Source: Patescibacteria group bacterium (GTDB lineage Bacteria; Patescibacteriota; Minisyncoccia; Phycocordibacterales; Phycocordibacteraceae). From it: a stretch of DNA of 64,000 nt. The notes beneath the pieces were generated by a model. It was not told where the DNA came from. It did not search any database and was given only the letters and a program-made list of their open reading frames with translations. Shown here one piece after another: positions 2,913-62,414 of this stretch. The stretch covers positions 5,759 to 69,758 of the forward strand of contig JAIETW010000002.1 in assembly GCA_019744845.1 (NCBI GenBank). Reading direction: 5' to 3'. Position 1 is the stretch's first letter. Every line of letters starts with the position of its first letter. A program made the position numbers and the translations under genes.

Positions 2913-6253
<3,341 letters not shown>

Positions 6254-6312: not shown

Positions 6313-6426
6313 GACGCTGGTGATTTATCGGAGGGGCCATACCCGTTCCCATTCCGAACACGGCAGTCAAGCCCTCTTGAGCCGATGGTACTCCGAAAGG
6401 GGGAGAGTAGGTTGTCGCCAGCGTCA
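6313..6426 (+). rRNA. rrf: 5S ribosomal RNA
   Basis: CCATTCCGAACACGGCAGTCAAGCCCTCTTGAGCCGATGGTACTCCGAAAGGGGGAGAGTAGGTTGTCGCCAGCGTC; helix I gacgctgg/ccagcgtc; T-run after. Confidence 0.85.
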
Positions 6427-18400: not shown

Positions 18401-18449
18401 GCAAAAGGTAAGGAAAGGAAACAAGAGAATTCTTGTGTTCCGCCTATTC
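18401..18449 (+). other. 16S rRNA 5' processing-stem strand (pairs with 20056..20103)
   Basis: gcaaaaggtaaggaaaggaaacaagagaattcttgtgttccgcctattc is near-perfectly complementary to gaataggcggaacacaagagtattcttgtttctccattccttttgc after the 16S; RNase III-type stem. Confidence 0.6.
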
Positions 18450-19908
<1,459 letters not shown>

Positions 19909-22925: not shown

Positions 22926-23001
22926 GCACGCTTAGCTCAGTTGGTAGAGCACTCGACTGATACTCGAGCGGTCCTAGGTTCGAATCCTAGAGCGTGCACC
23001 A
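22926..23001 (+). tRNA. tRNA-Ile (anticodon GAT)
   Basis: Cloverleaf: acceptor gcacgct/agcgtgc, D-arm gctc-agttggta-gagc, anticodon arm ctcga-ctGATac-tcgag, T-arm ctagg-ttcgaat-cctag, discriminator A + encoded CCA. Confidence 0.85.
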
Positions 23002-44406: not shown

Positions 44407-44529
44407 ATGGCAGCAAAAAAGAAGGCCGCAAAGAAGACTGCAAAGCGCAAGCCAGCAGCAAAGAAGAAGACCGTCAAGAAGGCCGCAAAGAAGACCACGA
44501 AGCGCAAGACCACCAAGAAGCGCATCTAG
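44407..44529 (+). CDS. Small lysine/alanine-rich basic protein (histone H1-like tail composition)
   Basis: MAAKKKAAKKTAKRKPAAKKKTVKKAAKKTTKRKTTKKRI; sits alone in a 380-bp intergenic gap and is followed by a strong intrinsic terminator. Confidence 0.4.
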   Translation: MAAKKKAAKKTAKRKPAAKKKTVKKAAKKTTKRKTTKKRI

Positions 44530-47150: not shown

Positions 47151-48134
47151 ATGGCTTTCGTTGATGAAATTCGGATACACGCACAAGCAGGACACGGAGG
47201 TCCGGGTGTAGTCCGCTGGGCGCATACCAAAGAAAAGGCGAAGGCAGGACCATGTGGTGGTGACGGAGGGCGCGGTGGTGACATCATCCTTGAAGGTGTG
47301 CGTGATCTTGCGGCACTTGCGTCATATCGTTTTACCAAGAAGTTTCGTGCAGAAAATGGAAAACCAGGCGGAGGAAATAATAAGCACGGTAAAGATGCAG
47401 AACCAATCGTGCTTCGTGTACCTGTCGGAACCGTCGCAAAAGTGACGACGACGGGTGAAGTGTATGAGATTCTTTCAGAAGGCCAGAGCGTAGTGATCTT
47501 TAAGGGAGGTCCGGGAGGATATGGGAACGCCCGCTTCAAAAGCTCTACAAACCAGAATCCTTTCCACACCACGAAGGGGAAACCGGGAGGGGTTGGGGAT
47601 ATCCACATTACCCTCAAATTGATCGCTGATGCGGGTCTTATAGGCTACCCGAACGCCGGTAAGTCCTCTCTATTGAACGCGCTTACCCGCGCGAGCTCCA
47701 AGGTGGGCGCCTACCCATTTACGACCCTTGACCCTCATCTCGGGGACTTCTATGGGCGTCTTCTCGCCGATATTCCAGGACTTATTGAAGGCGCATCGTC
47801 CGGGAAAGGCCTCGGCTCCAGGTTCTTGAGGCACATAGAACGCACTGGATTGCTTGTACATCTCGTCTCGTCTGAGCAAGAAGACCCTATCTTGGCGTAT
47901 AAAAAGATACGCGCTGAACTTGAAGCCTTTGGACAGGGTCTCGGCGAAAAGAGGGAGCTTGTCGTTCTTTCTAAGGCGGACCTCCTTACCCCCGAGAAAC
48001 GGGGAAATATACAGGAAGACATGCAGAAGGCCATAGGGAAGGATGTGGTCCTTTTGTCAGTAGAGGATTCAGAGCTGTTGAAGGCTTTTGCCGATCGCCT
48101 CACCAAAGAGCTCTCACAAGGGGAGGGGAAGTAG
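47151..48134 (+). CDS. obg: GTPase Obg
   Basis: Gly-rich Obg fold N-terminus (GGDGGRGGDIIL) plus G-domain GYPNAGKSSLL. Confidence 0.85.
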   Translation: MAFVDEIRIHAQAGHGGPGVVRWAHTKEKAKAGPCGGDGGRGGDIILEGVRDLAALASYRFTKKFRAENGKPGGGNNKHGKDAEPIVLRVPVGTVAKVTTTGEVYEILSEGQSVVIFKGGPGGYGNARFKSSTNQNPFHTTKGKPGGVGDIHITLKLIADAGLIGYPNAGKSSLLNALTRASSKVGAYPFTTLDPHLGDFYGRLLADIPGLIEGASSGKGLGSRFLRHIERTGLLVHLVSSEQEDPILAYKKIRAELEAFGQGLGEKRELVVLSKADLLTPEKRGNIQEDMQKAIGKDVVLLSVEDSELLKAFADRLTKELSQGEGK

Positions 48135-49556: not shown

Positions 49557-49611
49557 AGGCAACTGTTCACAATCTCTTATATCCGAGATAAAAAACGTAT
49601 ATACTTCCTAC

Positions 49612-50367
49612 ATGGATGATCTCGTTATAGAAGGCAAAACATACCTCTCCTCTAAGCGTGCTGCTGAGGTAACAGGATATGCAAAAGACTATGTTGGTCA
49701 GCTCTGCAGAGAGGGGCGTGTAGAGGCACGGCTTGTAGGGCGTAGTTGGTATGTGCTCGAACAGTCAATAAGAGAGCATCGTTTTGGTACTCCTGAGAAA
49801 GAAGTAGAGACTCAGGTAGTTCAGGCACCAATAGAGGAGAGGGTGGCAGAGGAAGAGGCATCTCCTTGGAATTCACCGAAATACATTAGCGAAGATGTAG
49901 CCCCCCTCCCAGAACTTAGACCTAAACTTGTTATAGATAAGTCACTCAACCTTCTTGCACGAACTGATGCATCCGACATAACTAGATTTGAGGCTCTAAA
50001 AATAGAAGAAGAGGAATCTCGTCTTTCCGAGGAAGTGTTGGTAGAAAAAATGGAAGTAGACGGTGCAAAAGAGGAAGATCAAGAGGTCAATATCGCAATA
50101 CATAAGGTACCCGAAGTAGAGAGAGAGCCAACTGCCTTCGTTGCTCCTTTGTCTAGGGAAAAAGAGGTAAAAAAGCCCTTACAAGACCGCCGACAGCAAA
50201 AAAAGAGAGGAAGTAACCTGGTGCATACATCAATTTTGATCGGAATAGCAATAATCTCCATCGCTGTGATACTTATAGGGACAGGCTACATAGACAGTGC
50301 ACCGTTTGAAGGACAAGAGGAAAGTATAATTGATTTTCTCGGTGGAAAGAGTTTCTATTCTAAATAA
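49612..50367 (+). CDS. Membrane-tethered protein with N-terminal excisionase-like HTH (HTH_17-like) domain, acidic linker and C-terminal TM helix
   Basis: LSSKRAAEVTGYAKDYVGQLCREGRVEARLVGRSWYV fits the HTH_17 pattern and is about 45% identical to the N-terminus of the giant gene at 50706; TM LVHTSILIGIAIISIAVILIGTGYI near C-terminus. Start taken at ATG 49612. Confidence 0.55.
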   Translation: MDDLVIEGKTYLSSKRAAEVTGYAKDYVGQLCREGRVEARLVGRSWYVLEQSIREHRFGTPEKEVETQVVQAPIEERVAEEEASPWNSPKYISEDVAPLPELRPKLVIDKSLNLLARTDASDITRFEALKIEEEESRLSEEVLVEKMEVDGAKEEDQEVNIAIHKVPEVEREPTAFVAPLSREKEVKKPLQDRRQQKKRGSNLVHTSILIGIAIISIAVILIGTGYIDSAPFEGQEESIIDFLGGKSFYSK

Positions 50368-50689
50368 TATATACAAAGTATCTTGTCTCGTTTGATCAAG
50401 AATTTAATAAAAATAGATATTAGTATAATTTTGCGAATTTATTGAAGTATTTTTTACTTAATATCAAGTTCTTAGTTTAAAAATGTATCTTTTTGTCTTA
50501 TTCTTTTGTTTCTATTCATACTCTTGGGAAAGGTAAGTAACATAACTTGAAATACCATCGTTTTTTGAAGAATTCTTATTTTTACTCATAAAATATTTTT
50601 CCAATAATTAATTTTTTGTTTACAAAACTATCCCCATAAAAATAAGAAATCTTTAAACGAAATTGAAGCAAGTGGCGTACAATATGAGT

Positions 50690-50701
50690 AGGTCGGATAT
50701 C
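50690..50701. promoter_or_regulatory. Perfect 12-bp palindrome TCGGATATCCGA abutting the giant-gene start codon
   Basis: gtaggTCGGATATCCGAtATG; operator or translation-sequestering hairpin candidate. Confidence 0.3.
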
Positions 50702-50705
50702 CGAT

Positions 50706-53700
50706 ATGTCTACTCCACCCAACGCAAAATTGATCTCAACTAAGTTGGCATCAGAAATTTCTGGTTATCATCCAGATTACATTGCGCGACTTTGTCGTTC
50801 AGGAAAAATTGTTTCTGTTCAGTTTGGAAGAAGTTGGCTGGTAGATCGTGAGTCACTTACTTCTTTCTCCAAGGCTCAAGATAAAAAGAAAAAAGAAATT
50901 GCACACGAACTTTCAAAAACTAGAGAACTTGAATACAAGACCGCACGAAAGGGAACAGTTTCCTTATCGTCGTCGCGCAAATCATTCATCACACGTCCTC
51001 AGAGACGTACTGTAGGAACATTTAGAGATAATGCGGTTGCGACGCTTGTAACACTTCTCATTGGCCTTTCAGGCCTCTATGGCTTTCAGTCTGGAGTTGC
51101 TGAATCTATCGGGAATCAGAGCCTCAGACTTGTTTCCGAGACTGCTGAAGGAGTACGTCTAATTGCAGAGGATCTTTTTGTACTTCCAGAGCAAGAGGAC
51201 TTTACTTTCACACTTGAAACAGATCATGTGTTCCGAACTTCTTCTGCAAGACCCCTTTTTCTTCCTGAGGTCCATGTGGCCGATGTAGGTACAAAGAACC
51301 TAGCAATGTCGGATTCCGATATTGCAGCCGTCATTGATGCTCAGGTGTCTAGTCACTCTGCTTCTTCTTTGACGGCTTCTGTTGGAACTATTGCCTTAGA
51401 CCCTACAATAGTTCTTGACACTATTTCTTCGTTTGATCCGATACATATATATATAGGTTCGGGAGAAGTGGTGAGAGAGACGATATTTGGGATACTGGAA
51501 GGATATTCCCAAGGAGTAGTAAGAGGTGCAGACGCATGGATTTCTGGAGGAAGTGAGATTCGGACCTGGTTATTGGCCGTCGCTAATTACGGCCTGACTC
51601 AGGAACTTGCGCTTGGGTCTGAGTTTAACCGCCTGTCTCAGAATCTACTTAACTCATACGAGCAAGGTCTTTATGCCTACGTACAGGAAAGTCGTGGGTG
51701 GCCAGTACATGTTGTCACTGCAACTCACACACTAGGGGGTGTTCTCGGTACTTTGGCACAGGAAATCCCAGACTCAATTGCCAGTTACTATGATCAGGGT
51801 ATCGTTGCGTGGGTCTTGGGAACGCAGGAGGTCGCGGAGGAAGGTAAGGGTGCACTTTTGGCTCTGGGAGAAGCTATATATGGTGCGGGCTCGGAGATAC
51901 AAGAAGCACATATGGCTCTTATACAAGGAACGGGGCTTCTTGCGTATGAGGGCATGGAGAATGTATCGGTCGCGGTCGCAAGTAGGGCCACCACAGTAGC
52001 TACTGCATTTAGTGCCACCTCTGCTAAGGAGGAACCAATTGCATTGGTAGCCGAAGAGCAGTATGCAGACACCTCTTATATGGCTACGACACAACCAGCT
52101 GCAACAGTACTTGCAGCGGAAGGTGCAGAAACTCAAACTAATCCTTTCTACTCTTTTGGAGAAGATCTTGCGCTTTATACCTATACGACGATCAATGACC
52201 TGTTTTACAAGGGACTTACTGTTGTTGCGTCATTCTTTGAACCTCAAGTTGCAATAGTACTGCCTGTACCTACACCGACGGTGGTAGAGAGTTCTCCAGC
52301 AGGTACGAGTTCTTCGTATTCAATAATTTCACAAACACCCGTTCAAAATGTGGTAAATCAAATTACTATTCAAGGTGTGTCGTATGACGTGTTGAATCAA
52401 CGTCTTGCAGAGTTACGACGCACTGTATCAAATGATATTTACGACAGTATTGATAACAATGATAGTGGCGGTGGGGGTGGAGGAAGTGTGAACTCTGTAG
52501 ACATTTCTGGCGGTACAACTGGATTTACGTTTGCGGGAGGTCCTATCACTTCTTCTGGCACAATTACTCTTTCCGGTACGCTTGGTGCAGAGAATGGAGG
52601 AACAGGACAATCAACCTATACCACAGGCGACATTCTGTACGCATCTAACGCAACCACGCTTTCTAAGTTGGGTGTGGGCGCTGCAGGGCAGGTGCTAAAA
52701 GTTGTTGGTGGTGTCCCTACGTGGGCAGCAGATATCACAGGTAGTGGTGGAGCGGGAGCATGGGCGACAAGTACTGACGATCTGTTTATTTCTCCTGCTG
52801 ACATTACCGATGTGGTGCTGATTGGTGCAGCGGCTACCACCACCACGGGGAATATTTTTGAAGTTGCTGGGAATTCACTCTTCCGTGGTTCGTTGATCTC
52901 CTACAACACCATTACCGCACCTATATTTACCTCTACCTCCACTACGGCAACTTCTACTCTTCCGAACACACAGATTACAAATCTTCTTATCGGTGGTGAC
53001 TACTTCACAGAATTTGTAGGTACAGGCCTTGCACTGTCTGGCTCCACACTCACTACCACACTTGGAACTTCAGTTGATATTGCAACAGAAGTTTCCGGTC
53101 TTGCCGCAGGAATCGCAAGCTGGCTCGGCACACCGTCATCTGCCAACCTCGCCACTGCAGTGACGGATGAGACGGGAAGTGGTGCATTAGTCTTTGGTAC
53201 CTCACCAACTCTTACGACGCCAAACCTCGGCACCCCATCTGCCGTCACGCTTACGAACGCAACTGGTCTTCCGATTTCAACGGGCGTCTCAGGTCTCGGT
53301 GCAGGTATTGCAACTTGGCTCGGCACTCCGTCTAGTGCCAATCTTGCAACTGCGCTTACAGATGAAACAGGTTCTGGTGCCGCAGTATTTGCAACAAGCC
53401 CTACATTGGTCACACCCAACCTCGGTACACCGTCTGCAGTAACACTCACTAATGCAACCGGTCTCCCGATCGTTGGTGGTACGACCGGTACTCTCTCTGT
53501 GGCCCGCGGGGGCACTGGCACTACTACTGCACCTTCTGGACAAGTGTTGTACGGAGGTGGAAGCGGTGTGTACCAGAGTGTCGCTACAACCTCAGCTACC
53601 ATTGGGTCCGGTCTTTCGTACTCTGGGACCTTCGGTGCTCTTCTTGGAGGAGTCGCAGGAACACTTTCTCTGAACGCGACTGGGGACTGGACCGGAACCT

Positions 53701-56700
53701 TTGACGGTCAGGAGGGAAGTTACTATCTCTCGCGTGCAAACCACACGGGTACACAACTTGCGTCTACTATCTCTGACTTTAACGCAGCGGTTGCGACCTA
53801 TATAAACTCTTCCACCACTATCTGGGATAACACCACAGAAGCATCACTAGAAACCTTCCTTACTGATGTCACCAACGTCTTCACCAACAACGACGGTGCG
53901 CTTTCTGACGACGATCTTTCAAACAACAGCATAGAAGATCTCTCTGATGTGGCAGCCATGACGAAGAACTACGGAGATCTTCTTTTCTGGAACGGATCTA
54001 CCTGGACCGACATTGCAACTTCTTCTCTTGGAATCACAGGCGGCGGCGGTATCACCGCGATCGGTCCCGCAGGACAAACAGCAGATGGACCAACGGTCAC
54101 TATCGCCACATCCACGGGTTCATTTAATGGACTCACTACTGCTATTACGGTCGTGGGATCTGGTGATACGCTCACCTACACCCCAAGCATCACCGGCACG
54201 CTTGATAATGCTGGTCTGACAAACTCCTCTGTATCGTTTGGTGGCGTCTCCGTCTCCCTTGGCGCTTCTGATGCAACACCAGCCTTCAACCTCGCAGATG
54301 CAACTGGTCTCCCAATCTCAACAGGTGTCTCCGGTCTTGCCGCAGGTATCGCAACCTTCCTTGGAACTCCTTCAAGTGCGAACTTGATAAGTGCAGTCAC
54401 TGACGAAACAGGATCAGGTGCACTCGTCTTCGGCACCAACCCAACCCTCACCACACCAAACCTCGGTACTCCCTCAGCACTCACCCTCACCAACGCCACA
54501 GGTCTTCCACTCACTACTGGTGTCACCGGCACGCTCCCTGCTGCCAATGGAGGAACCGGGCAGTCTACGTACACCGCGGGAGATATTCTGTACGCTTCAA
54601 ATGCGACCACACTTACCAAACTTGGTATAGGAAGCGCAGGTGAAGTGCTGAAGGTTACAGGCGGTGTTCCATCCTGGGAGCCAGATGCAACTGGGGGAGG
54701 TGGCGCCGGCGCATGGGCAACGACGACTGACAATCTTGCGATCTATCCGTCAGACACTTCTGATGTCGTCATAATAGGAGGAAGCGCCACGACTACCACC
54801 GGCAATATTCTTGAAGTTGTAGGAAACTCACTCTTCCGTGGTCTTTTGACTAGCTACAACACAGTCACCGCACCTATATTCACTGCCACCTCTACCACCG
54901 CTACGTCCACATTCCCGAATGCAACTATCACCAACCTTTCTATAGGAGGTGATTATCTTACTGACCTTGTTGGTACTGGTCTTGTGCTCTCTGGTTCTAC
55001 TCTTACCACCACGCTTGGTACGGCAGTTGATATTGCTACAGAAGTGTCAGGTCTTGCCGCAGGTATCGCCACATTCCTTGGAACTCCTTCGTCTGCAAAC
55101 TTTGCTGCCGCGCTTACAGATGAGACAGGCTCAGGCCTTGTCGTATTTAGTACATCTCCCGTACTTACGACCCCGAACCTCGGTACGCCATCAGCAGCGA
55201 CACTCACCAACGCTACGGGCCTCCCACTCACCACCGGTGTCACGGGCACACTTCCTGTGGGCAACGGAGGTACAGGAGCAACAACCTTCACCAACAACCG
55301 TCTCCTTACTGGCAACGGTACAAGCGCACTCGTAGATGAAGCAAACCTGACGTTTGATGGTTCACTCCTTACGGTCACAGGAAATGCAACCACTACGCAA
55401 ATTGGTTCAACGGGGAGTGCGTACTTTGTGACAGGAGGTACTGGCGCGGTAGGAATTGGTTCTACCTCTCCTTCCAAGATGTTGTCTGTGAATGGAGCGT
55501 TTTATGTAGATCCAGGGTCCGCAGGAGTGTCTATCATTGGCGCATCAACAAATATTACTAACTTTGGTGGGATAGTGGGTGCTAATGATACTTTTTATGT
55601 TGCTTCAAGCACCACAGGTACTAACAGTATTCGGAACGCGATATTCTTAGCAAACAGTACTGGTGCAGCAGCAGCAGCAAGTATCTTCCAAGGTATCAAT
55701 GCGTTTGCGGGATATGAAGGTAGTACCGACCTCACTACCACTACAAATGGAGGAGCACTTCGTAACCGTTATGGTGCGATAAATGCAAGTGTGGGTCGTA
55801 ACGTGGCGAAGGCAAGTGGAGTGGTGAGTACGATCGTTGTGATTGGTACAACAGCAAGCACCACCGACGGTGCATCTTTTGCAGCAGAGTCGCCATCTAT
55901 TTCTGCAGGGAACCTCCTCACAAACTACTATGGTTTCCGTGCGGAAGGCGGCGCAGTGTCTGGTACCCTTACGAACCGGTATGGTCTCTACATAGATGAC
56001 ATGACTGGAGGAACGAACCGGTATGGTATTTACCAAGCAGGCTCCACTGATCTAAACTATCTTGCTGGAAATCTTGGTATTGGCACCACTACACCAGCAC
56101 AGACGCTTGCAGTTGGAGGTAACGTTATTATTGGTTCTTCAACTGCAGGCGGCAGCAACGGTACATTGACGTATGGTGGTGTCACACTTGCTAACTCTGT
56201 GACTGGTACGGGTTCTATGGTGTTGTCTACATCACCAACCCTCACCACACCAAACCTCGGCACACCTTCAACACTCATTCTCACTAATGCAACCGGACTT
56301 CCAGTCTCCACTGGTATCTCTGGACTCGGTACTGGTGTTGCTACCGCGCTTGCAGTGAACACAGGTACCGCCGGTTCCTTTGTGGTGAATGGAGGTGCAC
56401 TTGGTACTCCTTCATCTGGAACTCTGACGAACGCCACCGGACTCCCACTTACGACCGGTGTCACGGGCACACTCCCCGTTGGTAACGGCGGAACTGGCGC
56501 CACTACCTTTACTAACAACCGTCTCCTCACCGGGAACGGCACCAGTGCATTGGTAGACGAAGCAAACCTTACCTTTGATGGCTCACTCCTTACTGTCACG
56601 GGGAATGCCTCAACTACGCAAATTGGATCTACGGGAAGTGCGTACTTTGTGACAGGAGGTACTGGCGCAGTGGGCATTGGAACGACGACTCCAATAAATA

Positions 56701-58457
56701 AATTTGAAGTTGCGGCAGACGCCGCAAGTATCGGCGATTCAGGACAGGTGAGGATTAAAGGAACGACGAATCCAAATAAAGGAATTACTATCGGCTACGA
56801 TACGACGCTTAACGTAGGTGCGATTTACGCCAGCATCGCTGGTACGAGCGCATCAAATCTTGCACTTCAAGCAGCGGGCGGCAACGTCGGTATCGCCACA
56901 ACCTCTCCATTCACTACTTTTGCGGTCGGAGGGAACTCATACCTTGGCGGCAACCTGACTGCAACTGGCACGGTTACGTTCTCCGCACTCACTGCATCAC
57001 GCGCAGTCTGTACGACGACTGGTGGTCAGCTTACAGTCACCTGTGCATCTTCCGATTTGGCGTCGTCACTTTCCGACGAAACAGGAACAGGATCAGTAGT
57101 CTTCAGTGCGTCACCAAGCTTTACGGGTGATGTACTGTTCTCTACGACAACGAGTAGCGGTTGGCCGGCCACCATCTTTGCTTCTTCTGAGGCACAGCTT
57201 TCTCTCTCGTCTGGAGCAGGTGTGTCGCAATGGGTGTTCCGTAACGCAGGGGGCACTTTCTACCTTGCAACGACAACAGTCGCAGGCACCGCAACCAGTA
57301 CCGTACCCGCGTTCTCTATTGGAAGCACAAACACCTTTACTACAGGAGGAAACCTTTCGGTCGGTGGTGGTACAGGAAAAATCACGGTCGGTACCATTGA
57401 TCCGGTCTACACTATTGATGGGGTGAACTATGCAACGTACGTCGCAGGCATGATTGGTCAGAAGGAAGAGACCACGGGAACCGCGGTCATTGCGACACCA
57501 ATCACTGCACCTGATGGCACCACGGGATACGCACATGTGATTGAGTTTGACGAAGAGCAGCCAGGAAGTGATGTGTGGCTCTTCGGTCGTGCGACGAACA
57601 TTCGCGAAAACATAGACAAGGTAGTGGTGCTTCTTTCTGCAGAAGGGAACACTAAAGTGTGGTACACGGTTGATCGTGCGAATCGTAAAGTGTATCTCCT
57701 TGCAGACACTCCAACACGCGTCTCATACCGCATGACGGCGCCACGTTTTGATTTTGCAAACTGGACTAACTACAACGAAGACGATGTACTGGGCTTTGAC
57801 CCCACATGGGATGAAAATACTGAGTTCTTCACTGGCGGTCTTAACTTCTCATTTGACGATGCGATCATTACGACAGGCACGACGACTCTTGCACATTTAA
57901 TTGAAGAAGCGGATGAGGATGATGACACCACGTACGCATGGACTGGTGCACTCTCCTTTGTGAGCGAGGGCCTCAAGGAAGCCATGGAATCACTTGAGGA
58001 CTCAGTGATCTATGTATTTGAAGGAGCACAGTACTACGCAGATGGAATCTTTAAGCGTATCTTTGCCGGGGAAGTACACACCGATACGCTTTGTATTACG
58101 GATGAGAATGGAGAGACCTGTATTACGCGCGATCAATTGAAAGCACTCCTTGCGGGTGCGGGCGCTGCACCTGCAGCAAGTCCAAGTAATAACGGAGGAG
58201 GATCGTCTGGCGGGGGTTCCTCAAACGATACGAATAATGACGGAGGAGATACTGGCGATACTCCAGGAGGGGACGATAACCCAACCGATAATGGTGACGC
58301 CGGGGCTGCAGGAGGTGATACAAGTGGGGAAAGCGGTGGTGAGTCTGCAGGAGAAGGTTCTGGAGGGTCAGATGAGGAAGGAGGAGATAATGGCGGAGAT
58401 ACGGCCTCTGGTGGCGATGGAGGAGGTGACTCAGGTGGTGGGGATGGAGGGGTGTAG
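50706..58457 (+). CDS. Giant (2583 aa) surface protein: N-terminal HTH_17-like domain, single TM helix, long Gly/Thr/Ser-rich repetitive fibre-like ectodomain, acidic Gly-rich C-terminal tail
   Basis: ISTKLASEISGYHPDYIARLCRSGKIVSVQFGRSWLV (HTH), TM AVATLVTLLIGLSGLYGF around aa 105-125, GGTG(Q/A)(S/T)T... and TLTNATGLP repeat units in 4-5 copies, two segmental duplications, C-terminal GGDTGDTPGGDDNPTDNGDAG... tail. Confidence 0.8.
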   Translation: MSTPPNAKLISTKLASEISGYHPDYIARLCRSGKIVSVQFGRSWLVDRESLTSFSKAQDKKKKEIAHELSKTRELEYKTARKGTVSLSSSRKSFITRPQRRTVGTFRDNAVATLVTLLIGLSGLYGFQSGVAESIGNQSLRLVSETAEGVRLIAEDLFVLPEQEDFTFTLETDHVFRTSSARPLFLPEVHVADVGTKNLAMSDSDIAAVIDAQVSSHSASSLTASVGTIALDPTIVLDTISSFDPIHIYIGSGEVVRETIFGILEGYSQGVVRGADAWISGGSEIRTWLLAVANYGLTQELALGSEFNRLSQNLLNSYEQGLYAYVQESRGWPVHVVTATHTLGGVLGTLAQEIPDSIASYYDQGIVAWVLGTQEVAEEGKGALLALGEAIYGAGSEIQEAHMALIQGTGLLAYEGMENVSVAVASRATTVATAFSATSAKEEPIALVAEEQYADTSYMATTQPAATVLAAEGAETQTNPFYSFGEDLALYTYTTINDLFYKGLTVVASFFEPQVAIVLPVPTPTVVESSPAGTSSSYSIISQTPVQNVVNQITIQGVSYDVLNQRLAELRRTVSNDIYDSIDNNDSGGGGGGSVNSVDISGGTTGFTFAGGPITSSGTITLSGTLGAENGGTGQSTYTTGDILYASNATTLSKLGVGAAGQVLKVVGGVPTWAADITGSGGAGAWATSTDDLFISPADITDVVLIGAAATTTTGNIFEVAGNSLFRGSLISYNTITAPIFTSTSTTATSTLPNTQITNLLIGGDYFTEFVGTGLALSGSTLTTTLGTSVDIATEVSGLAAGIASWLGTPSSANLATAVTDETGSGALVFGTSPTLTTPNLGTPSAVTLTNATGLPISTGVSGLGAGIATWLGTPSSANLATALTDETGSGAAVFATSPTLVTPNLGTPSAVTLTNATGLPIVGGTTGTLSVARGGTGTTTAPSGQVLYGGGSGVYQSVATTSATIGSGLSYSGTFGALLGGVAGTLSLNATGDWTGTFDGQEGSYYLSRANHTGTQLASTISDFNAAVATYINSSTTIWDNTTEASLETFLTDVTNVFTNNDGALSDDDLSNNSIEDLSDVAAMTKNYGDLLFWNGSTWTDIATSSLGITGGGGITAIGPAGQTADGPTVTIATSTGSFNGLTTAITVVGSGDTLTYTPSITGTLDNAGLTNSSVSFGGVSVSLGASDATPAFNLADATGLPISTGVSGLAAGIATFLGTPSSANLISAVTDETGSGALVFGTNPTLTTPNLGTPSALTLTNATGLPLTTGVTGTLPAANGGTGQSTYTAGDILYASNATTLTKLGIGSAGEVLKVTGGVPSWEPDATGGGGAGAWATTTDNLAIYPSDTSDVVIIGGSATTTTGNILEVVGNSLFRGLLTSYNTVTAPIFTATSTTATSTFPNATITNLSIGGDYLTDLVGTGLVLSGSTLTTTLGTAVDIATEVSGLAAGIATFLGTPSSANFAAALTDETGSGLVVFSTSPVLTTPNLGTPSAATLTNATGLPLTTGVTGTLPVGNGGTGATTFTNNRLLTGNGTSALVDEANLTFDGSLLTVTGNATTTQIGSTGSAYFVTGGTGAVGIGSTSPSKMLSVNGAFYVDPGSAGVSIIGASTNITNFGGIVGANDTFYVASSTTGTNSIRNAIFLANSTGAAAAASIFQGINAFAGYEGSTDLTTTTNGGALRNRYGAINASVGRNVAKASGVVSTIVVIGTTASTTDGASFAAESPSISAGNLLTNYYGFRAEGGAVSGTLTNRYGLYIDDMTGGTNRYGIYQAGSTDLNYLAGNLGIGTTTPAQTLAVGGNVIIGSSTAGGSNGTLTYGGVTLANSVTGTGSMVLSTSPTLTTPNLGTPSTLILTNATGLPVSTGISGLGTGVATALAVNTGTAGSFVVNGGALGTPSSGTLTNATGLPLTTGVTGTLPVGNGGTGATTFTNNRLLTGNGTSALVDEANLTFDGSLLTVTGNASTTQIGSTGSAYFVTGGTGAVGIGTTTPINKFEVAADAASIGDSGQVRIKGTTNPNKGITIGYDTTLNVGAIYASIAGTSASNLALQAAGGNVGIATTSPFTTFAVGGNSYLGGNLTATGTVTFSALTASRAVCTTTGGQLTVTCASSDLASSLSDETGTGSVVFSASPSFTGDVLFSTTTSSGWPATIFASSEAQLSLSSGAGVSQWVFRNAGGTFYLATTTVAGTATSTVPAFSIGSTNTFTTGGNLSVGGGTGKITVGTIDPVYTIDGVNYATYVAGMIGQKEETTGTAVIATPITAPDGTTGYAHVIEFDEEQPGSDVWLFGRATNIRENIDKVVVLLSAEGNTKVWYTVDRANRKVYLLADTPTRVSYRMTAPRFDFANWTNYNEDDVLGFDPTWDENTEFFTGGLNFSFDDAIITTGTTTLAHLIEEADEDDDTTYAWTGALSFVSEGLKEAMESLEDSVIYVFEGAQYYADGIFKRIFAGEVHTDTLCITDENGETCITRDQLKALLAGAGAAPAASPSNNGGGSSGGGSSNDTNNDGGDTGDTPGGDDNPTDNGDAGAAGGDTSGESGGESAGEGSGGSDEEGGDNGGDTASGGDGGGDSGGGDGGV
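53073..53468 (+). repeat. Tandem in-frame approx 200-nt repeat (2 copies) encoding the ...GLAAGIA(S/T)WLGTPSSANLATA(V/L)TDETGSGA... unit
   Basis: Copies 53073-53273 and 53274-53468; further copies at 54315-54509 and 55026-55226. Confidence 0.7.
55241..55459 (+). repeat. 219-nt segment duplicated at 56462..56680 (approx 85% nt identity by eye)
   Basis: cacgggcacacttcctgtgggcaacggaggtacaggagcaacaaccttcaccaacaaccgtctcc... versus cacgggcacactccccgttggtaacggcggaactggcgccactacctttactaacaaccgtctcc... Confidence 0.65.
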
Positions 58458-58498: not shown

Positions 58499-60793
58499 AT
58501 GCGTACTCTCATGAACGTGCAGACCCGATTCTCTCTTATCGCACTTTTTGCGCTTGTGCTCGTGCCTGGGGCGTTGTTTGCGCAGGAAACTCCAGAGTTT
58601 CTCACCAGCACGCTCTCCCTTGGGTCTGAAGGAGAAGAGGTCGCATTGCTTCAGACATGGCTTGCCTCTGATGCAGAGATATATCCTGAGGGATCGGTCA
58701 CCAGTGTCTACGATGCAGCTACAGAATCGGCAGTGAAGCGGTATCAAGAGAGGCAAGGTGTCGTGCTTACTGATCCTTCAGGGGAAAGCATGTACGGAGA
58801 GGTGGGTCCTATCACTCGTGCAGATTTGAATGCACGGTTCTCTTCTACGCGTGGAGGTATTGCAGTCGTTGAAGGTCCGTATGCTGCAGGCGCACTCTGG
58901 AAGGGAGATTCATTCGTACCATTTGAACAAATGACTTCTCCAACTCCTGGAGCCATTGCGAGTGTTGAGTTGTGGGTGAAGCCCGCTGCACTTACTGAAC
59001 ACGACACCCGTATTTTTACGGTTGGTGAAGGATACAGTGTGGGCACACAGTCTGAAGGAAAAATCTTTGCACAAAGTTTTGCAGGCAAAGCAGTAAGTAT
59101 TGATCGTGTTCTCCGCGCAGGGGAGTGGCAGCATATTGCGGTCTACTTTACGAACGAATCTGCGGTGATTGTCTACAACGACGCCGTACTCGGTACCTAC
59201 ACACTCCAGCCGCAGCGTCCATGGACTGCGTTTGATGCATTCTTTGATCGGACATTTGCAAATCTCTTCGGTGGTCTTGTTCCTACGCGAGATACCGGGA
59301 CTTCTGTTGCAGCAACACAGAGCACAGAAGTCGTAGCGCCTGTTGCAGAATCCTCAAATATATTCGGAAAGATCGCTTCTTTCTTCCGTGGTATTTTCGG
59401 TCTCCCTGAGCCAGCACCAACATCAGAACCTGCTCCAGTTGTAGAAGCGCCGAGTGTGCCGGAAGAGCCAGAACCAGTTCCTGCCAAGCCAGAAACTCCC
59501 GCCACCACTCCAAATATTTTTGCGGGACCTCCGAAGGTAACGCTCCCACCTGCGCCTGCAGTATTCCCAACCGTGACGACGACCAAGGTTGCGACGACTA
59601 CTCTCGTCGCTACCACGACGGCAACCAGCACACTCGCGGTCGCAACGACGACCGCCACCAGTACTGATCCAGTCGCGACCAGCACTGACGCTACCAAAGC
59701 TACTGCCGGTGGTTCATCTGCAGTCACAGTAAAGGGTGCACCAGTCATCACTCTCCAAGGAAGTGAACTCATTGAGATTGATGGAGGAGATGTGTACAAC
59801 GACCCAGGGGCGAGCGCAAAGGATGATGAAGACGGCAACCTTACGAAGAAGGTGGTCATCAGTGGCGACAAGATTAACTACAACAAGGTAGGGGACTACA
59901 AGATCAAGTACAACGTAACCGACTCAGATGGAAACAAGGCCGTTGAAGTGATTCGTATTGTTCGCGTGGTGACCCCTGCGCCTATTCCTGAAAGTCAGCA
60001 GCAGCCTCGCTACTCACTGCCAGGTGCGGGTGAAGATGTTACTTACACGGTCTCAAGTGGTACAGGTGTGGATCCGAAATTCGTATCCGTAGAGATTAGT
60101 CCGCTGCACGTATATGTAGGTCAAACACAGACATTTACAGTGAAAGTGTCGTCGGCTGCGGGAGTGGAATCAGTTACCTCTGAGACAGAGCTTGATACCA
60201 CTACCCTTGATCTCCCGCTCACCTTGAAGAGTTCAAGTGGAGGAGTGGATACCTATGAAGCATCATGGGTTGTATACGACACACACGTGAAGACCTACCT
60301 CACGACATTCACTGCAGAAAGTAATTCAGGCAGTGAGAACTCCATTACCATGGCGTGGTCAGACCCTTGCCCAGGATTGACCCAAGGTTCATCCTCATCA
60401 GTTTCAAGTAACTGTAGTGTGTCCTCTGTTGCAGGTCTTGATGGAGGAACGGTCACCATTCCTGGTGGTGTGACGCTCACACTCAACAGTGGCGCAACGT
60501 GGGCTTGGAATCCTGGGACCTCCATCATCGTTGACGGAGCTATTGTAAAGGCAAGTGGTGCACAGCTTCGTAAGGGATACCTCTTCTACTCAGGTTCTAC
60601 GAACGAGACGGCAAACACTTCATCATTTGTATTTGACACCAATTCCAGTTTGTCCGGACACGTTCGTGCAAACGCGTATACCCAAGGCTACTACTATGCG
60701 CAGGGATACTACTACTCACAGGGCTACTACCAGGGTGGGTATTACTTCGAAAGCGGATACGGAGGATTCCAAATCTTTGAGTTCATCCCATAG
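58499..60793 (+). CDS. Secreted multidomain surface protein: signal peptide, peptidoglycan-binding-like domain, LamG/ConA-like domain, Pro/Thr linker, Ig-like (DUF5011-type) domain, Tyr/Gly-rich C-terminus
   Basis: SP MRTLMNVQTRFSLIALFALVLVPGALFA; LLQTWL...VYDAATESAVKRYQERQGV (PG_binding_1-like); ...GEWQHIAVYF (LamG-like); TTTKVATTTLVATTTATS linker; GDKINYNKVGDYKIKYNVTDSDGNKA (Ig-like); QGYYYAQGYYYSQGYYQGGYY tail. Confidence 0.7.
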   Translation: MRTLMNVQTRFSLIALFALVLVPGALFAQETPEFLTSTLSLGSEGEEVALLQTWLASDAEIYPEGSVTSVYDAATESAVKRYQERQGVVLTDPSGESMYGEVGPITRADLNARFSSTRGGIAVVEGPYAAGALWKGDSFVPFEQMTSPTPGAIASVELWVKPAALTEHDTRIFTVGEGYSVGTQSEGKIFAQSFAGKAVSIDRVLRAGEWQHIAVYFTNESAVIVYNDAVLGTYTLQPQRPWTAFDAFFDRTFANLFGGLVPTRDTGTSVAATQSTEVVAPVAESSNIFGKIASFFRGIFGLPEPAPTSEPAPVVEAPSVPEEPEPVPAKPETPATTPNIFAGPPKVTLPPAPAVFPTVTTTKVATTTLVATTTATSTLAVATTTATSTDPVATSTDATKATAGGSSAVTVKGAPVITLQGSELIEIDGGDVYNDPGASAKDDEDGNLTKKVVISGDKINYNKVGDYKIKYNVTDSDGNKAVEVIRIVRVVTPAPIPESQQQPRYSLPGAGEDVTYTVSSGTGVDPKFVSVEISPLHVYVGQTQTFTVKVSSAAGVESVTSETELDTTTLDLPLTLKSSSGGVDTYEASWVVYDTHVKTYLTTFTAESNSGSENSITMAWSDPCPGLTQGSSSSVSSNCSVSSVAGLDGGTVTIPGGVTLTLNSGATWAWNPGTSIIVDGAIVKASGAQLRKGYLFYSGSTNETANTSSFVFDTNSSLSGHVRANAYTQGYYYAQGYYYSQGYYQGGYYFESGYGGFQIFEFIP

Positions 60794-60854: not shown

Positions 60855-62414
60855 ATGCGTCGCGCGCTTCTTGGCATAGCTGTTGTTGTCCTCACGATAC
60901 TCGTATGGCCTGTGTCCGGTCCTACCGTTACGGTAGAGGTAAGTGAGGAAGGGTTTCTTCCGTCTGAACTTACGGTTGCACAAGGTACAACCGTTACGTT
61001 TGTAAATGTAGGGTCAACGACTCATTGGCCCGCAAGCAATGTGCATCCCACTCATTCTGGGTATCCAGGTTCTGGGATTCAAAAGTGCGCGACGATAGAA
61101 CAGAACTTAGTTTTTGATTCCTGTGCGGGAATAACGTCAGGAAATTCATATTCATTCACCTTCCACACTCAAGGAGCATGGACCTATCACGATCATCTCG
61201 CGCCAACACTTCAAGGGCGTGTGACCGTATCTCCGGTCCCGCAGTACCAAGAGCCGTTCCTGCACGCTGCGTATGCCACGATAGTTCGTTTTCCGGAACA
61301 TTTGGATTTTTTCATACGCGATCTTTTCATCGCGCCAGGAGAAGAACGGATTGCGGGGAAGTACACACAAGAAGATTTGAAGACTGATACCGACTATTCC
61401 GTAGAGCGAATCTTAGACATTGCAGAGAATCCACTTGAAGTATTGCGTGCAGTACACCAGATCGGCGTGGTAGAAGGACTCTCGCGTATTTTTGAAGAAT
61501 CTGGGTATGAAGCAACACAAGCATGCCATGTCGCCGCGCACGAAGTGGGGCGCGCAGGGTTTCAACTATTTGGCATAAAGGTGTTTGAACAATGCACCAC
61601 CGCCTGTCATTCGGGTTGTTATCATGGTGCGCTTGAGGAACTTGCAACCGCTAAAAATTCACATGACCTTCTTCAAGAAACCACAGCGTATTGTGGGAGT
61701 CTTGCCACACCCTATGAACGGTATCAATGCTTCCATGGGGTAGGGCACGGGTACATGATATATAGTGGGTATGACTTGCCAGCGGCAGTACATTCGTGCC
61801 GTTTGCTCGGTGAGGGCAATAACGTTGGTTGCTATACGGGAGTTTTTATGGAAAATCTCGCTCAAGCAGATAACAATCTTTCAGGCAGAGAGCCACTGAT
61901 TACGACGTGGATCTCTCCGGAGGATGCACACTTCCCGTGCAGTCAGTTTCCAGACGATGCACTTGTGAGTGCTATGTGTTACTCAGCGCAAATTTCTGTT
62001 GCACACGCACTTCTTCAAGACCTTCCGGAGATTATTGAATTTTGTAATGACGCACCAGCACACGCACGTGCGTTATGTTTTAGGGGAATAGGAAGAGAGC
62101 TAAATGGGTTTCATGGGCAGAAGCCAAGTCAGGCTGAGCAAATGTGTGCGCAGGTCCCAAGCAGTTATTACAGTGAATGTATTATTGGTGCGTCTAAATT
62201 AGCTATTGATTCATTGGGTCTTGACACCACTGCTCAGGCCGCAGGCTTCTGTGCGGGCTTTTCTGATACACATGCAAAAAGTATCTGCTATGAATTCTAC
62301 AGTAGCTATATCCCGACGCTCTTCATTTCTCTAAGTACACAAGAGGGCGTATGCGCGCGATTTGAAACTCCTTTTGATGCAGCGTGTATGGAATCCTTAC
62401 CCACAGAGCCATGA
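60855..62414 (+). CDS. Membrane-anchored protein: cupredoxin-like N-terminal domain + Cys/His-rich domain
   Basis: TM anchor; TVTFVNVGSTTHWPASNVHPTH...C...HDH cupredoxin-like; downstream CHVAAHEVG, CHSGCYHGA, CFHGVGHGY, CRLL, CYTGVFMEN motifs shared with next gene. Confidence 0.6.
   Translation: MRRALLGIAVVVLTILVWPVSGPTVTVEVSEEGFLPSELTVAQGTTVTFVNVGSTTHWPASNVHPTHSGYPGSGIQKCATIEQNLVFDSCAGITSGNSYSFTFHTQGAWTYHDHLAPTLQGRVTVSPVPQYQEPFLHAAYATIVRFPEHLDFFIRDLFIAPGEERIAGKYTQEDLKTDTDYSVERILDIAENPLEVLRAVHQIGVVEGLSRIFEESGYEATQACHVAAHEVGRAGFQLFGIKVFEQCTTACHSGCYHGALEELATAKNSHDLLQETTAYCGSLATPYERYQCFHGVGHGYMIYSGYDLPAAVHSCRLLGEGNNVGCYTGVFMENLAQADNNLSGREPLITTWISPEDAHFPCSQFPDDALVSAMCYSAQISVAHALLQDLPEIIEFCNDAPAHARALCFRGIGRELNGFHGQKPSQAEQMCAQVPSSYYSECIIGASKLAIDSLGLDTTAQAAGFCAGFSDTHAKSICYEFYSSYIPTLFISLSTQEGVCARFETPFDAACMESLPTEP

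Follow-up and report, generated by a model that had tools for sequence, protein, structure and literature searches.

Two adjacent genes in the window, a 64,000-nucleotide stretch of DNA from a Patescibacteria group bacterium, encode single-pass membrane proteins with an excisionase/MerR-type winged helix-turn-helix (HTH) domain on the cytoplasmic side of the transmembrane (TM) helix, as the initial annotation had proposed, and together they form a core two-gene module that is kept in every Patescibacteria genome sampled. Both open reading frames are present as annotated. Gene A (49612..50367, + strand) specifies a protein of 251 aa composed of the winged HTH, a ~150-aa charged linker, the TM helix and an external tail of 26 residues that reaches the C-terminus. 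Gene B (50706..58457, + strand) specifies 2583 aa, in which the winged HTH is followed by a basic helix, the TM helix and a giant fibre-like ectodomain. Such an arrangement would place DNA-binding-type domains at the inner membrane face of an ultra-small Patescibacteria/CPR cell, one of them continuing outside as a fibre-like filament.

A conserved gene pair downstream of secA, obg and gatB

When CPR genomes were searched for the pair, it was present in 80/80 loci examined: an A-type gene lies immediately 5' of a B-type giant in all of these related Patescibacteria loci, and the gene order secA-obg-gatB-A-B is fixed across them. Because the same pair recurs in all 80, it is not a chance feature. 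Records of the sampled genomes are labelled Paceibacterota, Parcubacteria, Kaiserbacteria, Minisyncoccia and others; the labels among the 80 loci listed are mostly of Patescibacteria type, with a few reading 'bacterium' alone and one 'Bacillota'. The start of A was assigned to the ATG at 49612, since a -10 box (TATACT, 49600..49605) precedes it and all A orthologues begin with MDEL. Protein A has an exact copy on Logan contig SRR15085116_189573, and the B orthologues range from 502 to >3,400 aa in length. The HTH family to which both proteins belong comprises 4,907 sequence clusters (50% identity, E<=1e-10). It includes 2xHTH members.

The pair might be an artefact that arose through mis-assembly or as a chimeric ORF, or else what is left of a domesticated prophage, devoid of a cellular role. 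Repeats do break assemblies, the Logan contig stops inside B, the long-read loci L002-L004 are frameshifted, and both domain types (HTH and fibre) are typical of phages. However, B is an intact ORF of 7,752 nt, neither an integrase nor any other phage gene was found near the pair, and the family is essentially absent from the viral contigs searched. The recurrence of the pair, with the same architecture, position and synteny, in 80/80 independent genomes effectively refutes this reading, to which we assign a negligible probability.

DNA-binding-type domains, membrane anchors and the giant fibre

The N-terminal domains of A (aa 11-55; 49642..49776, + strand) and B (aa 11-53; 50736..50864, + strand) both match the Pfam family PF12728 (HTH_17), in keeping with the class suggested for them in the initial annotation. 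The matches (E 2.8e-5, 24.7 bits for A; E 1.2e-5, 25.9 bits for B) lie slightly under the curated gathering score of 27, a point against the regulatory model proposed below; precomputed PF12728 matches exist on many homologues of the two proteins. The HTH domains of A and B share 18/42 identical residues (43%; BLASTP E 3e-11), a significant similarity close to the ~45% noted earlier, and the two proteins are, judged by sequence, paralogues. The AF2 model of B residues 1-62 (pLDDT 83) has an HTH fold with the order strand-helix-helix-strand-strand-helix. Its best Foldseek matches were Xis, TraN, BldC, RdfS, GlnR and RacA (TM 0.58-0.67, probability 0.9-1.0), and all structural neighbours with a probability of at least 0.9 bind dsDNA; a PDB profile search with the same domain retrieved TraN (E 0.012). 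Columns S13, K15, G22-Y23, D26-Y27, L31, C32, R33, G43-R44 and W46 are invariant or at least 90% conserved in an 11-sequence alignment, and on our reading of the model they would fall in helix 1, in the second (putative recognition) helix and in the beta-hairpin wing. In an alignment of 68 B N-termini the HTH is followed by a conserved basic helix (RK.E.A..LA..RE.EYR; 50865..50939, + strand, to aa ~78), and the membrane-proximal ectodomain is poorly conserved.

The 44-aa core of the A HTH displays a mean pairwise identity of 81% (79 species), compared with 62% for the B HTH. This difference argues for a core function of the short paralogue rather than the decoy role once considered for it. The conserved block in A spans aa 1-59; a short linear motif, W[ED].P.Y, is conserved in its linker, and so is the external tail. 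These features also bear on an alternative that follows a RodZ-like logic, in which the HTH-fold domain would be a structural or protein-interaction anchor with no role in transcription regulation: it would dock the fibre base and A to a conserved partner in the cytoplasm, for example part of the cytoskeleton or of the division or secretion machinery, or A and B would bind each other. The A HTH is indeed conserved about as well as housekeeping proteins (SecA is ~70% identical to that of the window), the linker motif and conserved tail are typical of adaptor proteins, and the N-terminal HTH and TM helix of RodZ bind MreB, not DNA. Nevertheless, the fold is of the winged excisionase/MerR type, with close structural neighbours that all bind DNA, whereas the RodZ HTH is of the XRE type (HTH_25), which matched neither A nor B in the Pfam search. 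We consider such an anchor unlikely, though more probable than the other alternatives weighed here.

The predicted TM helices occupy aa 207-225 of A (50230..50286, + strand; Kyte-Doolittle peak 2.62) and aa 110-127 of B (51033..51086, + strand), the latter being a signal anchor. The helix of A is preceded by DRRQQKKRGSNLVHT and followed by YIDSAPFEGQEESII, and that of B is preceded by ITRPQRRTVGTFRDN. Within the 15 residues N-terminal of the helix there are 5 K/R in A and 4 R in B, while the 15 residues on the C-terminal side contain no K/R and 5 D/E in A and one R in B. This charge bias points to an N-in topology for both proteins, in support of the intracellular N-termini assumed in the initial annotation. 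B would be a type-II (N-in, C-out) membrane protein, its first 55-80 residues being predicted to be cytoplasmic.

Beyond the anchor, B continues into a repetitive ectodomain of ~2,450 residues resembling phage tail-fibre proteins, and its earlier description as a giant fibre-like surface protein holds. The G/T/S/A-rich fibre region (aa ~600-2150; 52503..57155, + strand) contains ~65-aa units of the form GTPSSANL..TDETGSG..NLGTPSA.TLTNATGLP together with GxxGIGTTxP motifs, which are linked to S74-type fibres. Internal repeats are 72-81% identical between residues 619-950 and 1270-1545 and 92% identical between 1501-1595 and 1908-2002. A receptor-binding-like beta-sandwich domain follows (aa 2234-2349; 57405..57752, + strand), and the protein ends in an acidic Gly-rich low-complexity tail (58164..58454, + strand) of 97 aa, with 36 G, 15 D, 5 E and no K/R. 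Pieces of the fibre share 58-70% identity with phage-encoded proteins; three of the phage genomes concerned are 39-55 kb, and in the two that were examined the B-like match is located inside a structural-gene module. A Peptidase_S74 domain is present in 4/10 complete B orthologues and in L002 and is not detectable in the window copy; surface Ig-like domains were also found in B orthologues. The ectodomain would thus form a long surface filament resembling a phage tail fibre, probably trimeric, and since it ends in a receptor-binding-like tip, the most probable role of B is that of an adhesin or contact fibre.

Promoter elements and a candidate operator

The promoter of A (49575..49605, + strand) consists of a TCTTATATCCGA(GA) motif and the -10 box 6 nt 5' of the ATG, and its mRNA is leaderless. 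The A promoter also has CGAGACGAGATA in the stretch that separates its -35-like element from the -10 box. Most orthologous loci have TTCCATACGAGACGAGATA-N4-TATACT at this position. Motif M1 (TCTTGTCTCG, consensus ATCTCGTCTCG; 50381..50390, + strand), located in the A 3'UTR 14 nt past the stop codon, is the reverse complement of CGAGACGAGA, which most loci have in their A promoter. A third copy is located within obg (47861..47871). Relative to the A-promoter motif, the copies in the 3'UTR and in obg are inverted, and synonymous sites are frozen at the one in obg.

The A-B intergenic region (50368..50705, + strand) is long and AT-rich (338 bp, GC 0.24); over 81 loci its median length is 541 bp and its GC content 0.38, compared with 0.53 for the whole locus. 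It contains the M2 box (TATCCCCA, consensus TTATCC[AC]CA; 50629..50636, + strand) 77 nt 5' of the B start codon, and M2 is found at -66 to -100 in 78/81 loci, mostly at -67/-68 or -76 to -78. M2 is also a general element of intergenic regions upstream of genes in this genome. Neither M1 nor M2 is specific to the A-B locus, and this again counts against the model proposed below.

The B promoter has a -10 box, TACAAT (50678..50683, + strand), in which the TAnnAT columns are nearly invariant over 75 loci. Between this box and the ATG lies M3, a 12-bp perfect palindrome (TCGGATATCCGA; 50693..50704) and candidate operator. Its position and sequence are both conserved across species, as is the whole 24-nt stretch from the -10 box to the ATG in ~75 species. 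The palindrome has only one exact copy in the window, and the 1.2 Mb of loci scanned contain it at ~3 further sites; no copies were found before other genes in either data set. M3 variants are apparently associated with B-HTH variants, an association confounded by phylogeny.

The explanation that we tentatively prefer, with confidence just short of even, is that B serves as a fibre adhesin anchored in the membrane, and that its cytoplasmic HTH acts jointly with paralogue A on the promoter of B itself. On the cytoplasmic side the N-terminus of B would adopt the excisionase/MerR-type winged HTH fold, the ectodomain forming a surface filament with a receptor-binding-like tip; A would retain the HTH and the membrane anchor with almost no ectodomain. 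The tethered HTHs would bind conserved sites in their own promoters, M3 being the main candidate, and the amount of B (and A) installed in the membrane would determine, from there, how strongly the very costly fibre gene is expressed. The clade-wide pair and the conserved, almost site-exclusive M3 fit DNA binding by a membrane-tethered regulator. We infer DNA binding by the two HTHs, the identity of the operator and autoregulation, whereas modulation by the state of the fibre (contact, tension, cleavage) is speculative. If the fibre is trimeric, three HTHs would face a site of two-fold symmetry, which speaks against the model.

If the HTHs were structural anchors instead, M3 would serve in translation initiation or as an mRNA element in the only gene here that has a leader. 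The genome is mostly leaderless, B being the visible exception, and M3, which abuts the B ATG, contains GGAUAU, complementary to AUAUCC at the unusual 16S 3' end (...ACAUAUCC...); it could therefore be a translation signal. However, no general use of Shine-Dalgarno sequences was seen in this genome, and conservation extends beyond GGAUAU alone to the full 24-nt segment. No compensatory changes were detected in the putative M3 hairpin in the cross-species alignment.

The initial annotation had suggested that host or surface contact could be coupled to transcription. In such contact sensing, engagement of the fibre tip with a host or surface would alter the oligomeric state or proteolysis of B and thereby switch its HTH at promoters beyond its own, with A as co-regulator. 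B does carry a receptor-binding-like tip, and the Peptidase_S74 domain of orthologues implies that trimerisation and cleavage are regulated. Yet we know of no mechanism by which a signal would travel along a ~2,450-residue fibre and through one TM helix, the membrane-proximal ectodomain is poorly conserved, and, M3 copies being absent before other genes, no regulon is visible. The architecture is, on the other hand, like that of the adjacent bitopic gene pairs ToxR/ToxS, TcpP/TcpH and PsaE/PsaF (PMC10269533; PMC8407435). On balance contact sensing appears rather improbable.

Less probable still is a nucleoid-membrane tether or cis-acting 'transertion' anchor, whereby the B HTH would leave the ribosome first and bind DNA beside its own gene, TM insertion would pin the locus to the membrane while the remaining ~2,450 residues were exported co-translationally, and A would be a constitutive tether. 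M3 lies at most 15 nt from the B start codon, the module always adjoins secA, and B is extremely long (>3,000 aa, a lower bound, at the end of the retrieved DNA in 17 related loci). The idea is purely inferential, however; the secA-obg-gatB synteny may be historical, and other giant proteins are secreted without any such aid.

Comparison with known systems

The initial annotation had not recognised the architecture as described, and no account of a membrane-tethered HTH pair with a giant fibre was found in the literature searched, but both single-pass transmembrane transcription regulators (TTRs; PMC10269533) and the large repeat 'adhesins' of Parcubacteria/OD1 were already known. The latter, unique proteins of >1,500 aa with beta-rich repeats (Nelson & Stegen 2015, PMC4508563), are probably the same genes as B: genomes C7867-001, -004 and -008 of that study are our loci L006, L064 and L017. 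The N-terminal HTH, TM anchor, paired gene and conserved promoter elements are not mentioned there.

Xis of phage Pukovnik (4J2N), RdfS (8DGL), BldC (6AMA) and TraN of pIP501 (4P0Y) belong to the same class as the N-terminal ~50 residues of A and B in both fold and sequence, and TraN contains the domain twice in tandem, which recalls the 2xHTH members of the family. Unlike A and B, these proteins are small and soluble, with no TM helix or surface-fibre fusion. Phage tail fibres and tailspikes with the Peptidase_S74 intramolecular chaperone, as well as R-type pyocin fibres, resemble B in its repeats, S74-bearing orthologues and receptor-binding-like C-terminal domain. B differs in having an N-terminal signal anchor in the cell membrane and in being chromosomal and syntenic with housekeeping genes, and its window copy also in lacking a detectable S74 domain. 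RodZ is bitopic like A and B: an HTH-fold domain at its cytoplasmic N-terminus leads through a juxtamembrane basic stretch into one TM helix, and A is similar to it in size and general organisation. RodZ, however, has an all-helical HTH and a RodZ_C domain, neither of which was detected in A or B, where the fold is a winged helix.

TTRs (ToxR, CadC, TcpP, PsaE and the wider class) are common (Demey et al. 2023, PMC10269533). As in A and B, one TM helix separates a cytoplasmic N-terminal DNA-binding-type domain from a C-terminal part outside the cytoplasm; TTRs are often encoded beside a second bitopic partner, and some control fimbrial or pilus genes. The likeness to ToxR/CadC seen at the outset therefore stands for architecture but not for family membership, which is rejected because the DNA-binding domain is HTH_17 (excisionase/MerR-like) rather than the OmpR-type winged helix (Trans_reg_C). 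Furthermore, B extends into a 2,450-aa tail-fibre-like filament where TTRs have a compact sensor domain, the HTH is present in the partner protein as well, and DNA binding by A and B is predicted. In the best model, the pair would be a transmembrane transcription regulator of new composition.

Winged-helix domains and membrane topology of A and B

Two adjacent genes on the forward strand, A (49612..50367) and B (50706..58457), encode proteins of 251 aa (from the ATG) and 2583 aa, respectively, as the initial annotation had it. Each protein contains one hydrophobic helix, located at residues 207–225 of A and 110–127 of B. The 15 residues on the N-terminal side of this helix include five Lys/Arg in A and four Arg in B, while the 15 residues on its C-terminal side include none in A and one in B. 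Taken with the extracellular nature of the C-terminal part of B, which is homologous to extracellular fibre modules, this charge bias indicates for both sequences a cytoplasmic N-terminus, a single transmembrane (TM) helix and an extracytoplasmic C-terminal part. A stops 26 residues past its TM helix.

When the isolated N-terminal domains were compared with Pfam, both matched HTH_17 (PF12728; residues 11–55 of A, E = 2.8e-5, 24.7 bits; residues 11–53 of B, E = 1.2e-5, 25.9 bits), with scores slightly below the gathering score of 27. Precomputed PF12728 matches are present in many close homologues. TIGR01764 'excise' was a weak match in NCBIfam (E = 0.005), the PHROGs matches were to 'DNA binding protein' and 'excisionase' families, and TraN was the sole match in a profile search of PDB sequences (E = 0.012). 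The N-termini of A and B can be aligned without gaps over 42 residues with 43% identity (E = 3e-11), close to the ~45% originally estimated.

An AlphaFold2 model of B residues 1–62, based on an eight-sequence alignment, reached a pLDDT of 83 and displayed a strand (9–11), a helix-turn-helix (12–19 and 23–32), a two-stranded wing (37–40 and 43–47) and a C-terminal helix (48–61). The top Foldseek matches of the model were Xis, TraN, BldC and RdfS (TM-score 0.58–0.67, probability 0.97–1.0). Its closest neighbours in the PDB are mycobacteriophage Xis, TraN of pIP501, BldC, RdfS, GlnR and RacA, all of which are excisionase/MerR-type winged-helix proteins that bind double-stranded DNA. Indirect support for such binding by the domains studied here comes from conserved residues, placed by us in helix 2 (the putative recognition helix) and in the wing, and from a conserved palindrome at the promoter of B itself (see below). 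Judged by the predicted fold, and with a borderline Pfam score, the N-terminal domains of A and B appear to belong to the excisionase/MerR-like winged-helix class. The three points on which the initial annotation had let its reading depend, namely an HTH fold or match, an N-terminus inside the cell and significant similarity between the two N-termini, all came out in its favour.

The HTH core is more strongly conserved in A (81% mean identity across 79 species) than in B (62%), and the A and B domains of the same genome are 39% identical. Outside the HTH, conservation in A extends to a W[ED].P.Y motif and the TM helix and, in part, to the short external tail.

The ectodomain of B and its phage relatives

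The ectodomain of B is rich in Gly, Thr, Ser and Ala and contains large repeats: residues 619–950 and 1270–1545 are 72–81% identical, and residues 1501–1595 and 1908–2002 are 92% identical. The final 97 residues comprise 36 Gly and 20 Asp/Glu and lack Lys and Arg altogether. In B orthologues, conservation covers a basic helix that extends to approximately residue 78 and a 'neck' spanning residues ~480–575, the remaining ectodomain being mosaic.

Searches of Pfam, NCBIfam, PHROGs and PDB sequences with the ectodomain did not return any significant family, and a word-indexed protein search seeded with B residues 1–600 resulted in no matches. The giant itself is absent from the protein collection searched, because assemblies break within its repeats. 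Residues 601–1600 matched proteins of seven phage genomes. The best four matches, to Pseudomonas phage PfAn1 and three spring-water Caudoviricetes, consist of pieces 58–70% identical to the repeat region of B (E down to 2e-47). In both phage genomes examined the match lies in the structural-gene module. In one of them (MW202701.1, Caudoviricetes sp.; matching region 5001..5519) the CDS annotated there, 'ribonuclease E', runs in the other direction, probably a wrong-strand gene call that masks a tail-fibre-like gene.

Peptidase_S74, an intramolecular chaperone of trimeric tail fibres, was identified in four of the ten complete B orthologues, and a surface Ig-like domain likewise in four of ten. 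The positional orthologues with Peptidase_S74 are those of loci L029, L051, L070, L077 and L002, the last of which is frameshifted and also ends with this domain; the Pfam search did not detect Peptidase_S74 in the B protein of the window. B combines shaft repeats homologous to phage fibre proteins with a receptor-binding-type tip. From these relationships we conclude that B is a membrane-anchored filament resembling a tail fibre and equipped with a binding tip, and that this filament is probably trimeric. The original description of the second protein as a fibre-like giant with a repetitive ectodomain and an acidic, Gly-rich tail is borne out.

The product of the gene just downstream of B (58499..60793, forward strand) is secreted; it carries a signal peptide and a Tyr/Gly-rich tail (QGYYYAQGYYYSQGYYQGGYY) in addition to PG_binding_1, LamG and surface Ig-like domains. 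Its homologues follow the giant in two other loci (L005 and L061), and in some species the giant includes the Ig-like domain. The next two genes on the same strand, 60855..62414 and 62384..63568, encode predicted membrane or secreted proteins for which Pfam contains no family. They share similar C-terminal Cys-containing segments (..FCAGFSDTHAKSICYEF.. and ..FCKGMTDLDAKEICVRT..), and the former displays a weak plastocyanin-like match.

Distribution and genomic setting of the gene pair

At thresholds of E<=1e-3 and E<=1e-10, a search of 1.84 billion proteins with a profile of the HTH domain retrieved 8,963 and 4,907 cluster representatives, respectively. All top 150 representatives carry two tandem HTH copies. 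Among eight top representatives that were read, the two HTHs are always followed by a linker and, in six, by a single TM helix, the other two appearing truncated. In another lineage a protein with two HTHs and a TM helix also directly follows gatB. The family is nearly absent from 2.9 million viral contigs (one weak match), and we rejected a phage origin for it on this ground.

Scanning one genome per species yielded 425 confirmed matches, of which the best 80 were analysed as loci. These are mostly labelled Patescibacteria, Paceibacterota, Parcubacteria, Kaiserbacteria, Minisyncoccia or 'Saccharibacteria'; for a few the label is just 'bacterium', and one is a 'Bacillota' MAG, perhaps mislabelled. 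In all 80 of these best-matching loci an A-type gene, ending merely ~10–25 residues past its TM helix, lies immediately upstream of a B-type gene encoding an HTH, a TM helix and a long ectodomain. Complete B orthologues range from 502 to 3,303 aa, and seventeen others exceed 3,000 aa at the end of the fetched DNA. The gene order Wzy, MurB, SecA, Obg, GatB, A, B is kept in almost all loci, and SecA is 66–76% identical to the window copy in most of them (95% in the closest locus, L005). The constant presence of the pair and the conserved gene order exclude an artefact.

Further members of the family accompany the pair in some species. A third HTH-TM protein of ~580 aa is encoded between A and B in L025 (7565..) and L040 (7535..), and an extra HTH-TM gene follows B in L029 (18456..) and L077 (18545..); these additional genes have different leaders, without the palindrome that precedes B (see below). 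In six loci the B-type protein contains two tandem HTHs. Loci L002–L004 (ENA ERZ250395xx contigs) are ridden with frameshifts, gatB, A and the giant each being split into several ORFs; this accounts for the many 'short' HTH proteins of 54–111 aa in the protein database.

The rRNA genes of the window are unlinked and unusually ordered, 23S (2931..6227) and 5S (6316..6423) being located 12 kb upstream of 16S (18449..19908); tRNA-Ile is at 22926..23001. The 23S match extends over 3,297 nt against a model of 2,925 positions and thus contains about 370 nt of insertion(s). The 3′ end of 16S rRNA (19895..19908) reads GGAACAUAUCCAAU and is devoid of the CCUCC anti-Shine-Dalgarno sequence. Many window genes preceded by an intergenic gap show a TATAnT box 6–13 nt upstream of the ATG and lack a visible Shine-Dalgarno sequence, and the position of the box implies that their mRNAs are leaderless; no Shine-Dalgarno sequence was seen at window genes inside operons either. 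B is unusual among the window genes in having a leader. At the level of the lineage, leaderless starts, a 16S 3′ end lacking CCUCC and the recurring TTATCCACA-like box of upstream intergenic regions are general traits of gene expression that bear on gene calling and annotation.

Conserved non-coding elements and a possible regulatory circuit

The spacer between A and B is long and AT-rich in all loci (median 541 bp; GC 0.38 versus 0.53 for the loci); in the window (50368..50705) it measures 338 bp with a GC content of 0.24. K-mer enrichment and position mapping revealed three motifs, M1–M3. In most loci M1 (CGAGACGAGATA) is found in the promoter of A, where it lies between a -35-like TTCCAT and a TATACT -10 box; the window carries the variant TTATATCCGAGATA at the same position. 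Its reverse complement, ATCTCGTCTCG, occurs 5–35 nt past the A stop codon of the loci (50381..50390 in the window) and again ~1.8 kb upstream, at 47861..47871 inside obg (47151..48134). The obg codons involved, CAT CTC GTC TCG for H-L-V-S, are invariant at synonymous sites in ~60 species, although the codon usage of the window assigns this combination a probability of 0.0027. These copies could be operators, partners in long-range RNA pairing or a processing signal. An intrinsic terminator was rejected, since in many loci a canonical terminator is found further downstream of M1; a consensus scan detected no terminator in the A-B spacer of the window.

M2 (TTATCC[AC]CA), mostly found 67–78 nt upstream of the B ATG, is identical to the DnaA-box consensus TTATCCACA. 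TATCC[AC]CA occurs on the forward strand of the window at 1118, 2633, 18244, 18262, 44267 and 50629, always in intergenic regions upstream of genes: twice before 16S, where a TTGACG-N17-TACTAT promoter follows, and before 23S, B and the gene of a small basic protein. Across 1.2 Mb of related loci M2 is present 58 times on the gene strand versus five times on the other. Given its occurrence upstream of other genes, M2 is not specific to the module and would seem to be, in this lineage, an upstream element of general use or else a site for a global factor. An origin of replication at the AT-rich, DnaA-box-like spacer was considered and rejected, because the flanking genes are both on the forward strand, the GC skew changes sign inside B alone and not at the spacer, and the TTATCCACA box recurs in several other intergenic regions. 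The small basic protein (44407..44529, forward strand, between murB and secA) comprises 40 residues, is extremely basic and rich in Lys and Ala (MAAKKKAAKKTAKRKPAAKKKTVKK...) and is reminiscent of histone H1; its gene comes with a TTATCCACA box and promoter-like hexamers of its own.

From the -10 box of B (TAnnAT; 50678..50683 in the window) to the start codon, nearly all bases are conserved in 75 species, the consensus being TA.tAT.TAgtTAATTCGGaTATCCGAC-ATG. M3, a conserved 12-bp palindrome (TCGGATATCCGA), is located at 50693..50704, between this box and the ATG; it has a single exact copy in the 64-kb window and recurs at about three other places in 1.2 Mb of loci. RNAalifold applied to 67 B leaders gave no consensus structure, and Rfam returned nothing at E<=1 for the leader and the A-B spacer. 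The potential 4-bp stem of the palindrome displays zero compensatory changes and 18 breaking cells; a stronger hairpin in the window (-12.2 kcal/mol) uses flanking bases that, in the alignment, are present in the window and L005 alone. An RNA element in this region was consequently rejected, and the lack of consensus structure and compensatory change indicates that M3 behaves as a motif whose sequence is recognised by a protein or rRNA rather than as a selected hairpin. Overlapping the start of the B transcript, M3 is a candidate operator; transcription is predicted to begin at about 50688..50692 for B and about 49611..49613 for A. Variants of the palindrome seem to be associated with B-HTH residues, CGGCTATCCG for example with RLAR/RLVR-type HTHs, mostly IGHSW, but this apparent co-variation is inseparable from phylogeny and was rejected as evidence.

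In one alternative, the N-terminal domains dock to proteins, as in RodZ, and the palindrome acts in translation. GGAUAU in the B leader is complementary to the 16S tail, and we regard this possibility as unlikely, though deserving attention. The analysis shows how A and B are built and folded, their topology signals and conservation, the fibre nature of B and the cis-elements; DNA binding, the choice of operator and autoregulation are inferred from these. The evidence is best accounted for, tentatively, by a transmembrane regulator of new composition. In this model the winged HTH on the cytoplasmic side of B, probably together with that of A, would bind the palindrome that overlaps the B transcript start, and expression of B would be set from the membrane by the amount of anchored protein, a form of autoregulation. 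B accounts for roughly 1% of a ~1-Mb genome, a size assumed from contigs of 0.6–0.74 Mb.

The contact-sensing idea of the initial annotation, by which the state of the fibre would modulate the HTH, is speculative, and signalling of contact to a wider regulon is rather improbable, since no further palindrome copies were seen in front of other genes in the window and 1.2 Mb of loci. A bolder proposal, which we consider similarly improbable, is that the pair couples the surface to the chromosome and is core to a large CPR clade, a contact filament derived from a phage tail fibre being joined through one TM helix to a DNA-binding domain on a palindromic operator where the transcript of the filament itself starts. 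Transcription would then be gated directly by whether the fibre is engaged, trimerised, cleaved or lost, with the second half-site, or sites akin to the TATCC/CGAGACGAGA motifs elsewhere, taken by the invariant A that lacks an ectodomain; alternatively, the gene would be pinned to the membrane and the giant exported while being made. That A and B serve as a nucleoid tether or a cis-acting transertion anchor seems very unlikely.

Patescibacteria represent a large share of bacterial diversity and encode very few regulators. To our knowledge, every member in culture lives in attachment to another cell, and little is understood of how hosts are recognised and attachment is controlled. The two-gene module joins, in every genome sampled, a likely attachment fibre to a DNA-binding-type domain, and sharply delimited, conserved DNA motifs accompany it. 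It also offers a testable handle, with a purifiable 60-residue domain, a 12-bp palindrome and a fixed address downstream of gatB by which the module can be located in any related genome. Should the HTH bind the palindrome, this would be a transmembrane regulator with an adhesin-scale filament as its 'sensor' and a rare defined regulatory circuit in CPR bacteria. The HTH-TM-fibre fusion and its conservation across the clade would surprise specialists; its function we infer. We found no description of the HTH-TM-fibre protein or of the A/B pair in the literature searched.

In architecture, A and B may be likened to the ToxR/CadC/TcpP/PsaE class, with its cytoplasmic N-terminus, one TM helix and extracytoplasmic C-terminal part. 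The initial comparison with ToxR/CadC-like one-component regulators holds for this layout but not for family membership: Pfam gave no Trans_reg_C (PF00486) match at E<=1 in either protein, HTH_17 being the sole DNA-binding-domain match, and A and B are thus not members of the ToxR family. The RodZ domains, XRE-type HTH_25 and RodZ_C/DUF4115, likewise had no Pfam matches in A or B, and unlike the XRE-type HTH of RodZ the fold predicted here has the beta strands of a winged helix. A and B do fit the broad definition of transmembrane transcription regulators (TTR class), which asks for one or more TM regions on the same polypeptide as a recognised DNA-binding domain (PMC10269533); a term search of that survey found no mention of HTH_17 or Patescibacteria. 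On the side of the filament, a study of OD1 genomes notes 'unique large (>1500 aa) proteins' as likely adhesins (PMC4508563), a description that B matches, and three genomes of that study are among the loci analysed here.
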